Below, one piece after another: positions 36,001 to 51,000 of a stretch of 64,000 bases of DNA. The stretch lies in the NCBI RefSeq assembly GCF_011045215.1, contig NZ_CP049201.1. One strand, given 5' to 3'. The position numbers were made by a program. The DNA is from Escherichia coli. Lineage in GTDB: Bacteria; Pseudomonadota; Gammaproteobacteria; Enterobacterales; Enterobacteriaceae. Numbering within the stretch: position 1 is the first letter of the stretch; the number at the start of each line of letters is the position of its first letter.

Positions 36001-39000
36001 ATGAACTGAATGAGTGGCTGGCAGAGAGAGGTTATGCCGGACTGGCGGATAACCGGAATCGCCTGGCAGAAGTTGTTACCCGCAGATTGCAGGACAGCTT
36101 TTATATAAACGTTTCCTGGGATGCGCTGAACACGGCATACAGTGAACACCCGGAGTGGTTTTCTGGGCTTGTCTTCGGGGATGAGAATTAAAAAGTGGAT
36201 TATGCTGCCATCAGGCAGTGTGATTGCCGGCAGGAATTTCGTTTTATTCTGTTTCTTCCCGGGGTTCGGGTTTGAATTTTCCTGGAAAGTTGTACATTGG
36301 CCGCATACAGGGATGTGGATAGCCGTCCCGCATAAATACCACCCGGGTTTCCTCAACACTGGTTACGGTGACAAGCGCACCATGATCGTCTCTGTATCGC
36401 TGACCGACTTTGGGTAACGGGATATCTTCAGACATAACTTCCGGAACAATGTTGTTTTACACGATATTGTTGTTATTACCCGGTACGTTGCGGATGCTTT
36501 TTCGGGGTATGTTAATTTATTGTTTTGTTGATTTTTTTTTGCTTTTTGTGCATTCCTGTCACTCTGATTTCTGCCTTTTACCTCACCTCCCTTTCTTCTG
36601 ACTTTCGCTGAGAACCGCTCAGATTCTGTACTGCATAAACTTCAATGATTTTAATCAAAAATCACTTTTTTCAGTGTTGACTGGCTGTATTTGAAGCATC
36701 TTACGGAATAATTTTCTGTCGTTTTTTGTTCTCCGTGGTTATAAGTTTTGCAATATGCTGCTTTTGCGATATTAGTTGGAATAAATAACTACGTGATAAC
36801 TACATATCGATCGATATGTCTGCAATATTGAGAATTTTCAGATCTTCATTCTATAATGATCAAAATTAAACCAATTCAGAGTTGACAAATTTATTACTCA
36901 ACATTCTGGTACCGGTTGATGCGGGTAAATACCGGAAGGGCGGTAGCGTACCATCGCAAAACATGGTGGGAGGTATCGTCAGGAGGCTGGTGATTGTTGG
37001 TATGACATGAATAAAAGGTTTTTCGTTTGACTGGAAAATTATGTTGCAGGAACGAGAGGGCTGAGGAACAAAGCGTATTCCGGCGCTGTCCGTCCTTGCT
37101 GTCACTGACACTGATGTCTGTTTTATTATCGCCTTTATCTCTTCAGGCCGCGGATGTCCGGCGTAGCGGAGATAATGCATTTATCATTCAGCAGCAGCGT
37201 CAGGAAGCCCTTGAGCAACAACTGACGCCTTCAGCCCCTGATGTTCGCCTTTCTGCACCTGGCTCTTTTGCCCGTAAGATTAATTTTCCTGTTGAAACGC
37301 CCTGTTTTCAGATTAAACAGACGGAACTGGAGGGGGCTGATGCGTTACCACACTGGCTGCCTTTACAAAAAATCGCCAACGGGGCGGTCGGGCATTGCCT
37401 GGGGGCGAAAGGAATTAATCTGCTGATGAGTACATTGCAGAACCGTCTGGTCGATCATGGTTATGTCACCACCCGTGTTCTGGCACCTTCGCAGGATTTA
37501 AAAAGCGGTATCCTCCGGCTGGTTGTTATTCCCGGTGTTGTGCGACATGTGCGTCTGACACCGGACAGTGATGACTATATTCAGTTGTATTCCTCATTCC
37601 CGGCACACGAAGGTTCTCTGCTGGATTTACGGGACATTGAGCAGGGGCTGGAGAATATGCAACGACTGCCGGGTGTGCAGGCTGATATGGAAATTGTACC
37701 CGGTGAGCAGCCAGGGGAAAGTGACATTCTTATTACCCGCAAACAGGACAAATACTGGCGACTGGGGTTTTCGCTTGATGATTCAGGTACCCGCAGCACA
37801 GGGCGTTATCTCGGTGGTATAACATTTTCTCTGGATAATCCTTTTTCCCTGAGTGACCTGCTGTATGTTTCTGCCACCCGTAATTTTCCACATTACGGGG
37901 GTAAGGGCAGTAAAAACTACACGGCCCATTACTCTGTGCCTTTCGGCTACTGGCAGTTTTCCGTCACCGCCAGTGATTACGATTACCATCAGACGGTAGC
38001 TGGTGCGGTTGAGGATTACCAGTACAGTGGCGAGAGTCAGAATCTGGGTATGCAGCTGAGCCGGGTACTGCACCGTAACGGGACGCAGAAAACGGTGCTG
38101 ACCTACGATGTTCAGGCCCGCAGGTCGCGTAACTACATTAATGATACGGAAATCCAGGTGCAGCGCCGGCAGACAGCGGCCTGGCGACTTGGGCTGCAGC
38201 ACCGTCATTATATTTCTCAGGCCACACTGGATGCTGGTGTCAGCTGGCAACGGGGAACCCGCTGGTTTGGTGCACAGCCGGCGCCGGAAGAAACGTTCGG
38301 TGAGGCAACGGCGCTCAGTAAGATCCTGCAGTTGAATGCATCCTTTAATCTGCCCTTTACCCTTGCAGGGCAGCCCTTCAGTTATTCCTTCCGGTATCAG
38401 CGCCAGCTGAGCAATACCCCGCTGACCCCACAGGAACAGTTTGCCATCGGTAACCGCTGGACGGTTCGTGGTTTTGACGGGGAGCGAACGCTGAATGCCA
38501 GTAACGGCTGGTATATCCGCAACGACCTGGCCTGGCGTACGCCACTGCCGGAGCAGGAGTTATATCTGGGAATGGATTACGGCGAGGTGGGGGGAGCCGG
38601 CAGTGAATACCTGGTGGGACGTCATCTGGCTGGTGGTGTTGTGGGGCTGAGGGGGCAACTGTTCAGTACGGATTATGACGTTTTCATCGGTCGTCCGTTT
38701 TCAAAGCCGGCGGGTTTTATGACGAGTGATGTGACAGCCGGTTTTAATCTGTTCCGGGATTTCTGAGAAAGTTTCATGCGTAACGGGAAATATGACGTTC
38801 TGAGTCCCCTGTATTCCGGTGAGCCGGTCAATGAGGCGGAAGTCCTGGGGGCGGCCGTCTGGTTGTGGATGCACTCCCCCCTGCATCGTGATGCGCCACT
38901 GCATACCCTGCCGGACCTGCTGCTGCCGGTGATTAAGCACCGACAGTATGTGGTGGCAACAGAGCAGGGGCGACCGGTTTTCTTCATGAGCCAGGCCTGG

Positions 39001-48000: not shown

Positions 48001-51000
48001 GTGCAGTTTGGGGTCGATAGGGCGACGGCACAGGCATACGTTGAAACTTATGATGGAATGAAAGTTGTAGCTGCTTCGATGGCACCAGTAATAGGTGCTG
48101 CGGCGGCCAGTAAGATAGAAGTTCTGGCTGGTAAACAACGCTTGTCTAATAGTTTCGAGGTTAGCTCACTTCCAGATGCAAATGGGAAAAATCACATCAC
48201 GGCTGTAAAAGGTGATGCTAAAATACCTGTCGATAAGATTGAACTATATATGCGTGGTAAAGCTTCTGGTGACCTTGATTCTTTGCAAGCAGAATATAAT
48301 TCTTTAAAAGATGCAAGGATTAGCAGCCAAAAAGAATTTGCAAAAGATCCAAACAATGCTAAAAGGATGGAAGTATTAGAAAAACAAATCCATAATATTG
48401 AGCGTTCTCAAGATATGGCTCGTGTATTAGAACAAGCAGGTATAGTGAATACTGCCAGTAATAACAGCATGATAATGGATAAGTTATTGGACTCAGCTCA
48501 GGGGGCTACGTCTGCAAATAGAAAAACATCTGTTGTTGTATCAGGGCCTAACGGTAACGTAAGGATTTATGCTACATGGACAATATTACCTGATGGCACG
48601 AAAAGACTTTCAACTGTTAATACGGGGACATTCAAATGATAAATGTGAATAGTACCGCAAAGGATATTGAAGGTTTAGAAAGTTACCTAGCTAATGGCTA
48701 TGTAGAGGCTGACTCTTTTAACGACCCAGAGGATGATGCGTTAGAGTGTCTCAGTAATTTATTAGTTAAAGATTCGAGGGGGGGGCTGTCATTTTGTAAA
48801 AAAATACTTAATTCAAATAACATTGATGGTGTTTTTATTAAAGGTTCGGCGCTGAATTTCTTATTATTGTCAGAACAGTGGTCTTACGCCTTTGAGTATT
48901 TGACAAGCAATGCGGATAATATAACTCTTGCAGAGCTTGAAAAGGCGCTTTTCTATTTTTACTGTGCAAAAAATGAGACAGATCCTTATCCTGTACCAGA
49001 GGGTTTATTCAAAAAACTGATGAAAAGATATGAAGAACTGAAAAATGACCCTGATGCAAAATTTTATCATCTTCATGAAACGTACAATGATTTTTCAAAA
49101 GCTTATCCTCTGAATAATTAGAAGCTATCGCCATGGAATATTGTCTATGACTGCATGGAAGGATGATGGTCATAGTGTGTTGGGAGCTATTCTTTAACAG
49201 ATTTGGGGGAAATGGTGTAACTGGCTGAAAGGGCGCGTCAGGGCAAAAAGTTGTTGCGCCGGAATTATAGCAGGACAAAGCGGTTTTAACGCGCTGAAAG
49301 CACAGGGAAAACTTGTTTTATCACAGCAACCTGCGGCGGAAAGAGTTGTTGTTGAGAATAACTTTTTGACCGCGGATCAGATCGATAGCTTTGCGGCAAA
49401 AGCAAAAGGGTGTGAAGTACGTGGCGACTGCAAACAGATTGTAAAGGAGATGGAGGAGCTCAGCCTTAAGCAACAGCAGGAAATGATAGCTGTCTGCGCA
49501 ACAAACCCTGCGGCCTGCAAAGAGAAATTCGGCGATATACCAGCTAAAGGAATGCTTGTACGAGAAGCGATAGATCGTGTGTTAGGTGCAGATGTACCGT
49601 CTGCAATGAAGAATGATATGTCTTCGTTGTTAGCTCAGCAGATCGAAGCGGAAGGTGTTGTTACCAGTACTGAATTTGCCTGTCAGCTACAAAATCGTTA
49701 CGGTATAGACAAGCAACAGGCTGAAATCCTTGCCGTCGCAGCATTGGGAGCAGTGACAGGTGGGATGGGGAAATCAGGTACTTCAACGGTAACTAAAAAC
49801 ATCGTTGTGGTTAATTCAGGTAAGAAAGGGGCCTGGAATCAAGCAATGAATAAGCCGGAACCGAATACCGTTTATAAGGTCGATGGAAATAAAACATACC
49901 AGACTGATGCATTGGGAAGAACTAGTTCAGTTGAGGGTATACTAGTTGCTTCGAAAAGCGACAGAAACACTTATCAGCAATGCAAGGCCGGGAAATGTGG
50001 TAGCTCTGGTGATGAAGGTGGTCATTTAATTGCCAGTATTTTTAATGGTCCTGGCGAAAAACTCAATCTTGTTCCTATGGATGGCAACCTGAATAAAGGT
50101 GTATGGAAACAGATGGAAAACACATGGGCTAATGCTTTGAAAGATGGCAAACAAGTTAATGTTAAAATAGAACCTGTTTACACTGGGGAGAATAAGCGTC
50201 CTGAAAGCTTTAGTGTAACATACTCTATTGATGGAGGCCGTCCTGTTATCAAAGACATCAGCAACACACCTGGAGGGGTAAAATGAACGAATTAGATGAT
50301 CTGCATAATAAAATAGGTCAGTTATTAGTGGATGCCGGTCCTGCTAATGCGATGAAGATCATTGCTCGTGCTAAATTATCACTAGATGGTGAGTCATGTG
50401 AGTATGAGTATGATTATCTTGATCAAGAGGGAGATGAAGATTGGTTCGTTCCTGATAAGTTAGCCAGTCACGATCTTAGGCTACTGTTAGTTAAAATGAG
50501 GGATTTTTACATCCGAAATAATATGACTAACGGGAAACCAGCATGGATAGGTTGTGAAATAATCGTTGATATACCAGAAGAAAAAATTAGCATAAACTTT
50601 CAATATGATGATGAACTATGATCTAGGCCCCGGGATCTCCACAATGCCCATAGCGTGTACGGTGGAACAAAGCGTGTCGGGGAAAAAATCGGCGGGCAGC
50701 GAAACGCAACAGAATAAAGGTTGTAACAAACTGAAAGAAAAGGGGAAAATCGTCTCCTTCACCACAATGCGCGTCAGAGAGAGTTGTTATTGAGAATAAC
50801 TTCTTAAGCTCTAAAGAAGCCCGACAATTCGATGAAGAACTGGTGGAATGCAAGGCTTCTGGTGGAGACTGTAAATCTGTTATTCAGAAATATCTGGATA
50901 TCAGCAACCAAAACAGTAAGGAACTGGCTGAAGCCTGTACTGGCGGTGGTGTTGCATGCGTAACTTGGGAGGAATTAATTCAGGGAAGGACTAATGTTGC

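Follow-up and report, generated by a model that had tools for sequence, protein, structure and literature searches.

Among the closest described systems to the locus reported here is cdiBCAI-STEC4 of Escherichia coli STEC_O31, a class IV contact-dependent growth inhibition (CDI) system characterized by Halvorsen et al. (2021, mBio, PMC8510554). In that system the CdiC protein is a toxin-activating lysine acyltransferase (TAAT) whose His37/Asp107 dyad was mutated and shown to be necessary, the acylated residue of CdiA-STEC4 is K1467, and the class IV lipid is 3-hydroxydecanoate. The class IV receptor is the inner core of lipopolysaccharide (LPS), with an epitope of HepI-phosphate and HepII that is common to E. 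coli core types (PMC8510554). The same study reported that the Lys1467 position is always Lys in cdiC-positive loci, that its sequence context bears no relation to the Gly-Lys sites of HlyA and CyaA, that K1466A lowers modification of the STEC4 receptor-binding domain (RBD), and that substrate recognition by TAATs is poorly understood. A second relevant system is that of E. coli 3006 (EC3006), whose C-terminal CdiA region (CdiA-CT) has been crystallized in complex with CdiI (6CP8, Gucinski et al. 2019; 6VEK, Bartelli et al. 2022, PMC9424206). The EC3006 CdiA-CT has a PtsG-dependent entry domain and a BECR-fold tRNase that cuts tRNA-Ile GAU (PMC9424206, PMC9086364). Here we describe a locus within a 64,000-nucleotide stretch (the window) of the E. 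coli contig NZ_CP049201.1, assembly GCF_011045215.1, which we judge with high confidence, from its sequence, to be a complete and apparently functional class IV cdiBCAI locus.

Open reading frame (ORF) calling identified cdiB, cdiC, cdiA and cdiI as four intact, closely packed genes on the plus strand, in the same order as in STEC4. Only 9 nt separate cdiB from cdiC and 15 nt separate cdiC from cdiA, while the cdiA stop and the cdiI start overlap by 4 nt (ATGA). The four genes run without interruption across 12 kb, and the 9.3-kb open frame of cdiA, together with the hidden Markov model (HMM) scores, indicates that these ORFs are not due to chance. What the sequence establishes directly is the order of the genes and their intactness, the families to which the proteins belong, the presence of the catalytic and active-site residues, and near-identity to characterized or crystallized proteins. 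A preliminary description of this DNA had placed a four-gene cdiB-cdiC-cdiA-cdiI locus at 37027-49121, and all the ORFs lie at exactly those coordinates. The end point of 49121 holds for the main four genes but not for the whole locus, which reaches ~52175 and takes in two orphan modules of toxin and immunity genes plus a third fragment with VENN.

The transporter gene encodes a TpsB-family protein with POTRA domains (POTRA_2, E=7.4e-23; POTRA_3, E=2.8e-17) and a full ShlB/FhaC beta-barrel (ShlB, E=1.6e-109), as found in class IV loci. The start of cdiB is ambiguous. The GenBank entry QIF16125.1 (550 aa) begins at ATG 37114; a signal peptide with a basic n-region is obtained only from TTG 37027, which has AAAGG ~8 nt upstream, and the resulting 579-aa form was also chosen by other depositors (GCK03131.1). 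A search of NCBIfam gave no match for CdiB, CdiC, CdiI or the orphan ORFs, and these proteins were assigned through Pfam and PDB sequence searches.

The gene between cdiB and cdiA, the position of cdiC in class IV loci, encodes a TAAT with the His/Asp dyad. The 175-aa product covers all 127 positions of the HlyC-family model PF02794 (model positions 1-127/127, E=4.6e-32) and matches in sequence the solved toxin-activating acyltransferase ApxC (PDB 4WHN, E=3.6e-27). His37 and Asp107 are present under the same residue numbers as the catalytic dyad of CdiC-STEC4, and the protein is identical to the CdiC of E. coli C5 at 174 of 175 residues. The preliminary description had recognized this protein as a HlyC-family acyltransferase and had made its account dependent on a family or fold match; both motifs on which it drew (WLWMHSPLHR and SGDRMWVCDWIAPFG) are in the translation, and the question of the fold is settled by the HMM and ApxC matches. 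The likeness of CdiC to the RTX activators HlyC, CyaC and ApxC extends over the full length of the family and includes the conserved His/Asp dyad, and their shared chemistry would be expected to be acyl-ACP-dependent lysine N-acylation (ACP, acyl carrier protein). Their substrates differ, in that CdiC acts on a type Vb CdiA filament whereas HlyC, CyaC and ApxC act on type I-secreted RTX cytolysins.

The 3106-aa CdiA, whose ORF was confirmed at the length and position first proposed (39319-48639), has the organization of a class IV effector: an N-terminal two-partner secretion (TPS) domain (TIGR01901, aa 106-203), filamentous hemagglutinin (FHA) repeats (TIGR01731), and a PT-VENN region bounding a variable CdiA-CT. 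Within its last 1200 residues, Pfam models identified Fil_haemagg_2 repeats, PT-VENN (E=2.8e-20) and DUF6862. Over 500 aa around the RBD the protein is identical to the CdiA of E. coli C5 (WP_073521113.1) at 488 residues (98%), and the C5 RBD belongs to the set of fifteen class IV RBDs from enterobacteria that is listed in Fig S5 of PMC8510554. The RBD itself (aa 1320-1610) is 83% identical to fragment P0063, which is of the STEC4 type and stands for 194 sequences; over the compared region its sequence agrees with the optical character recognition (OCR) text of CdiA-STEC4 in Fig S3 of PMC8510554. These comparisons with C5 and the STEC4 type, plus the published EC93/STEC4 alignment, assign the RBD to lipidated class IV. 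The lipidated class IV interpretation given at the outset therefore stands, and a match to a non-lipidated class, the outcome that had been named as contrary to it, was not seen in these comparisons, in which the RBD matched class IV and no other class.

Class IV RBDs are carried by 181 of 5,426 complete E. coli genomes. Among these 181, nucleotide identity to the RBD described here was at least 95% in 11, 90-95% in one and 80-90% in the remaining 169, and the RBD of this locus is a minority subtype of a known class. A large protein search with the RBD returned short partial fragments alone; these sufficed for alignment, though not for surveying the Lys column across the whole family. The basic patch aligned ambiguously in distant relatives (Klebsiella, Photorhabdus, Brenneria).

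The residue predicted to be acylated in this CdiA is Lys1476. Direct lookup of the STEC4 residue numbers (Cys1243, Lys1466, Lys1467 and Lys1469) was rejected, as they do not align on this protein because the two effectors differ in length (3106 aa here, 2939 aa in STEC4), and the site was therefore mapped by alignment. The STEC4 patch YYYRIRKKGKDKQGE, which ends at residue 1483, was taken from the OCR text of Fig S3 of PMC8510554 and used for numbering. Both a MAFFT alignment with P0063 and counting from the invariant YYY placed K1476 in the K1467 column, and the codons were checked. The presence of Lys in this column fits the published observation of an invariant Lys in cdiC-positive loci. 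Both proteins have a Tyr-rich basic patch, which reads YYY-R-I-R-K1466-K1467-G-K1469-D-K-QGE in STEC4 and YYY-R-I-K1474-R1475-K1476-N-K1478-N-D-R-QGE in this CdiA; aligned with C5, the three versions are RIKKKG-TDR (C5), RIKRKNKNDR (here) and RIRKKGKDK (STEC4).

The toxin tip differs from that of STEC4, which is an Ntox25 ionophore needing AcrB. From VENN to the C-terminus, the CdiA-CT is identical to PDB 6VEK chain A at 336 of 337 residues, and the last 163 residues of CdiA match 6CP8 chain A. CdiI is identical to 6CP8 chain C at 159 of 161 residues, and 6VEK chain I gave a near-identical score (E ~1e-105). All the active-site residues listed for the tRNase (K204, Y208, H256, R260 and T330; PMC9086364) are present, as is the Cys55-Cys65 pair of the entry domain (PMC9424206), which corresponds to Cys2824 and Cys2834 of CdiA. 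The likeness to the E. coli 3006 module extends to the CT, the immunity protein, the cysteine pair and the active site; the module differs in being fused here to a class IV, cdiC-linked CdiA body. Across VENN the G+C content falls from ~57% to ~39%, as is typical where a CT/cdiI cassette has been exchanged. The cassette was found in 14 of the complete E. coli genomes, at times as an orphan. In E. coli STEC434 (L003 1942-13982) a cdiBAI locus that lacks cdiC has the same cassette (99.7% nucleotide identity) on its 3259-aa CdiA, and PGAP labels the cdiA gene there a "contact-dependent inhibition effector tRNA nuclease". Set beside the cdiBCAI locus described here, it clearly shows that cassettes are exchanged at VENN between classes of CdiA, as the modularity of these systems would lead one to expect.

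As the proteins of this locus are near-identical to characterized ones, a sequence of steps can be proposed for it. CdiB would export CdiA and display it on the cell surface, and CdiC would take a fatty acyl group from acyl-ACP and place it on one Lys of the basic Tyr-rich patch of the RBD, here predicted to be Lys1476. The lipidated RBD would bind the phosphorylated heptose inner core of the LPS of a neighboring cell, with the lipid entering the outer leaflet, and the region C-terminal to VENN would pass into the target periplasm and then be cleaved off. The N-terminal entry domain of the CT would cross the inner membrane with the help of PtsG, a glucose transporter, and of the proton gradient, after which the BECR-fold tRNase domain would cut tRNA-Ile(GAU) and growth would stop. 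In sibling cells, CdiI would bind the tRNase and block its activity. For this strain, expression of the locus, acylation of K1476 and use of the LPS inner core as receptor, as in STEC4, are expected by analogy, and entry via PtsG and cleavage of tRNA-Ile are taken over from the near-identical EC3006 protein.

No observation contradicts this account, though several points allow some doubt. Nearly all the differences of the RBD from the STEC4 type are concentrated at aa 1355-1399 (which has a 3-residue insertion), aa 1444-1449 and aa 1464-1493. The last of these three patches is the acylation patch, in which Arg replaces K1466 immediately before the target Lys, Gly1468 has become Asn, and there is a one-residue insertion. 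In view of these changes around K1476, the efficiency of acylation or the Lys chosen (its neighbors being K1474 and K1478) could differ from STEC4, and identity of receptor specificity with STEC4 is an assumption made by analogy. This clustering, and the rarity of the subtype, would also fit a class IV locus of the same kind in which the RBD has shifted to another LPS core epitope or chemotype, to acylation at K1474 or K1478, or to another lipid. We consider such a shift unlikely, as a Lys is kept at the Lys1467 column, CdiC is 99% identical to the C5 enzyme, C5-type RBDs have been put in the same class with the conserved inner core as epitope (PMC8510554), and the other ~230 residues of the RBD are nearly identical to STEC4. 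If it were true, it would suggest that class IV effectors diversify lipid-assisted recognition of LPS as classes I-III diversify protein receptors. A further set of observations bears on whether the locus is active at all. Relatives in complete genomes are frequently broken. In strain 08-00022, which among RefSeq complete E. coli genomes has the closest match over the full length (97.1%), cdiA is interrupted by IS66 and cdiB is split, and in C5 the RefSeq cdiB and cdiA are likewise split or pseudogenized; such cdi loci do decay, though the copy described here is intact. The promoter candidate upstream of cdiB is a consensus match (one site found, 1.7 expected in shuffled sequence) and is not significant by itself, the frame shifts within the second orphan module, and the surroundings are rich in insertion sequences (IS). 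That the locus is silent or decaying island cargo, with no expression or no export of CdiA, nevertheless strikes us as very unlikely: its four genes are uninterrupted, CdiC and the tRNase both keep their catalytic residues, and laboratory work has shown the homologous STEC4 locus to be expressed from its own promoter (PMC8510554).

The names assigned by PGAP ("hemolysin secretion/activation protein", "toxin-activating lysine-acyltransferase" and "filamentous hemagglutinin"), and the fact that HlyC-family enzymes classically activate cytolysins, would lead instead to a two-partner-secretion hemolysin or adhesin for host cells (ShlA/HpmA-like or FHA-like) that is activated by acylation as RTX toxins are. 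We rejected this interpretation, to which we attach almost no probability. PT-VENN is followed by a CT matching a crystallized antibacterial tRNase at all but one residue, the CdiI match is to the cognate immunity protein and its gene overlaps the cdiA stop, and together these effectively refute it; in addition, there are orphan VENN modules downstream, and the homologous system kills E. coli (PMC8510554).

With the class IV CDI reading preferred, the novelty that had been claimed for this allele, namely which residue is acylated and which receptor is targeted, was overstated, as Lys1467 and the phosphorylated LPS inner core were published for class IV in 2021. The system type, the role of CdiC, the receptor, the lipid, the acylated residue, the toxin activity, the entry route and the structure of the immunity protein have all been published. 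A meaningful difference in behavior between this minority RBD subtype, with its rearranged basic patch, and STEC4 seems improbable to us. The locus matters little beyond its annotation, being a textbook example of CDI modularity: a predicted CdiC-lipidated, LPS-binding class IV filament joined at VENN to a cassette that rides elsewhere on a CdiA without cdiC. It does, however, provide a natural allele for asking how far the sequence near the acylated Lys may vary while recognition by CdiC is kept. The coordinates of the locus features are given in Table 1.

Table 1. Coordinates, within the window, of the cdiBCAI locus, its domains and predicted sites, and the orphan modules downstream.
Feature	Coordinates	Strand	Basis
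Sigma-70-like promoter candidate, TTGAGA-18-TATAAT	36828..36857	+	Consensus match (11/12); ~170 nt upstream of cdiB
cdiB, TpsB outer-membrane transporter, 579 aa from TTG start (550 aa from ATG 37114)	37027..38766	+	Pfam POTRA/ShlB
cdiC, toxin-activating lysine acyltransferase (TAAT/HlyC family), 175 aa	38776..39303	+	PF02794; ApxC 4WHN match; His37/Asp107
cdiA, class IV CDI effector, 3106 aa	39319..48639	+	TPS domain, FHA repeats, PT-VENN
Class IV receptor-binding domain, C5-like minority subtype, ~aa 1320-1610	43276..44148	+	Identity to C5 and STEC4-type
Lys1476 codon, predicted acylation site (aligned with Lys1467 of CdiA-STEC4), inside YYYRIKRKNKNDRQGE patch	43744..43746	+	Homology
VENN motif, aa 2770-2773, boundary of conserved CdiA body and exchangeable CdiA-CT	47626..47637	+	
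Cytoplasm-entry domain of CdiA-CT, EC3006 type, PtsG-dependent by literature	47626..48150 (boundary approximate)	+	6VEK identity
BECR-fold tRNase toxin domain, EC3006 type	48151..48636	+	Identical to 6CP8/6VEK across domain
cdiI, cognate immunity protein, 161 aa, EC3006 type	48636..49121	+	6CP8 chain C match
Orphan-1 cdiA-CT: pretoxin remnant, VENN (49351-49362), DUF6862-like entry domain, DNA/RNA non-specific endonuclease	49198..50286	+	
Orphan-1 cdiI (putative), 112 aa, overlaps orphan-1 toxin stop codon	50283..50621	+	Position, gene overlap
Orphan-2 cdiA-CT: VIENN (50789-50800), Cys-rich entry domain open to 51280; other-frame Gly-rich hydrophobic C-terminal part 51322-51801	50735..51801	+	
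Orphan-2 candidate immunity gene, 77 aa, two hydrophobic segments	51798..52031	+	Sequence read directly; putative role
Orphan-3 fragment: VENN (52038-52049), then only ~40 codons of entry domain	52032..52175	+	

Downstream of cdiI, VENN-type motifs occur at 49351, 50789 (VIENN) and 52038, in different frames. The toxin of the first orphan module, which has no TPS or FHA body upstream, matched Endonuclea_NS_2 in Pfam (E=3.7e-39) and the EssD nuclease 8GUO (E=1e-15). A family search with the 112-aa ORF that follows it gave no match, and its position and overlap with the toxin gene suggest that it is the immunity gene. The second module is probably frameshifted; a Pfam search with its C-terminal part gave no match, and the composition of this part points to an ionophore-like protein. 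Orphan cdiA-CT/cdiI modules have been described from the cdi loci of E. coli (Poole et al. 2011, as cited in PMC9086364). Those in the window resemble them in having VENN-containing CT fragments without a TPS/FHA body, a small immunity gene after each, and an arrangement as an array past cdiI, and nothing notable sets them apart, beyond the apparent frameshift of the second module and the reduction of the third to a stub. Other E. coli genomes contain parts of this array in differing order. The DNase pair, the probably frameshifted ionophore-like pair and the stub are spare toxin/immunity cassettes.

The exact CdiA is in GenBank (QIF16127.1/WP_164476217.1), and the exact CdiA, CdiC, CdiI and 550-aa CdiB were all deposited from one E. 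coli chromosome of 5,409,430 bp. The same chromosome has an identical 550-aa CdiB under two accessions (QIF14237.1 and QIF16125.1) as well as a further CdiA, 2493 aa long, that falls into the same 90% cluster. From the second CdiB accession and the 2493-aa CdiA, the source strain probably carries a second class IV-like cdi locus. The C5 locus shares the island context of the locus described here and differs from it, apart from its broken genes, in having an Ntox25 CT.

The cdi locus is carried by a low-G+C island that has an integrase gene and begins after clpA, beside serW sequence. Following clpA there are, in order, CRISPR-DR4 repeats, 3'-end fragments of serW and a P4-type integrase gene (23951-25153), and the island also holds an ECs1377-family gene (35248-35871). 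In related E. coli genomes, hha, an inovirus Gp2-family gene and zinc-ribbon genes are annotated upstream of cdiB. The CRISPR-DR4 (type I-F) repeats between clpA and the integrase gene comprise two full copies (23407-23434 and 23467-23494) and a third, truncated copy near 23527, and the region 23407-23545 resembles a small relic of a CRISPR array situated at clpA-infA. Within 23590-23800 there are two copies of the 3' end of the tRNA-Ser gene serW (reverse complement TGGCGGTGAGGGGG), directly repeated ~180 nt apart, each copy preceded by the same ~50-nt sequence, and between the copies there is a match to the RtT family of Rfam (46.3 bits, gathering score 45). ARAGORN and Rfam searches of the whole window identified no intact tRNA gene. 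The repeats look like att-site scars of a serW-integrated island, with the intact tRNA gene outside the window.

Directly past the orphan array is a gene for an Ail/Lom/OmpX-family outer-membrane protein (52297-52854; NF011777, 153 bits, under the equivalog cut-off). It is followed by a dense IS cluster (53423-63108) that includes an IS66 transposase, IS21 istA/istB, an IS4 transposase and an IS3/IS2 transposase. About 7 kb from the cdi system, the island also encodes a 160-aa LptA-like periplasmic protein (55859-56341), which scored 97.7 bits against TIGR03002 (cut-off 71.7) and 67 bits against the E. coli LptA equivalog model (cut-off 234). This protein is a diverged LPS-transport paralogue, and any tie between it and the LPS-binding CDI system would be pure speculation.

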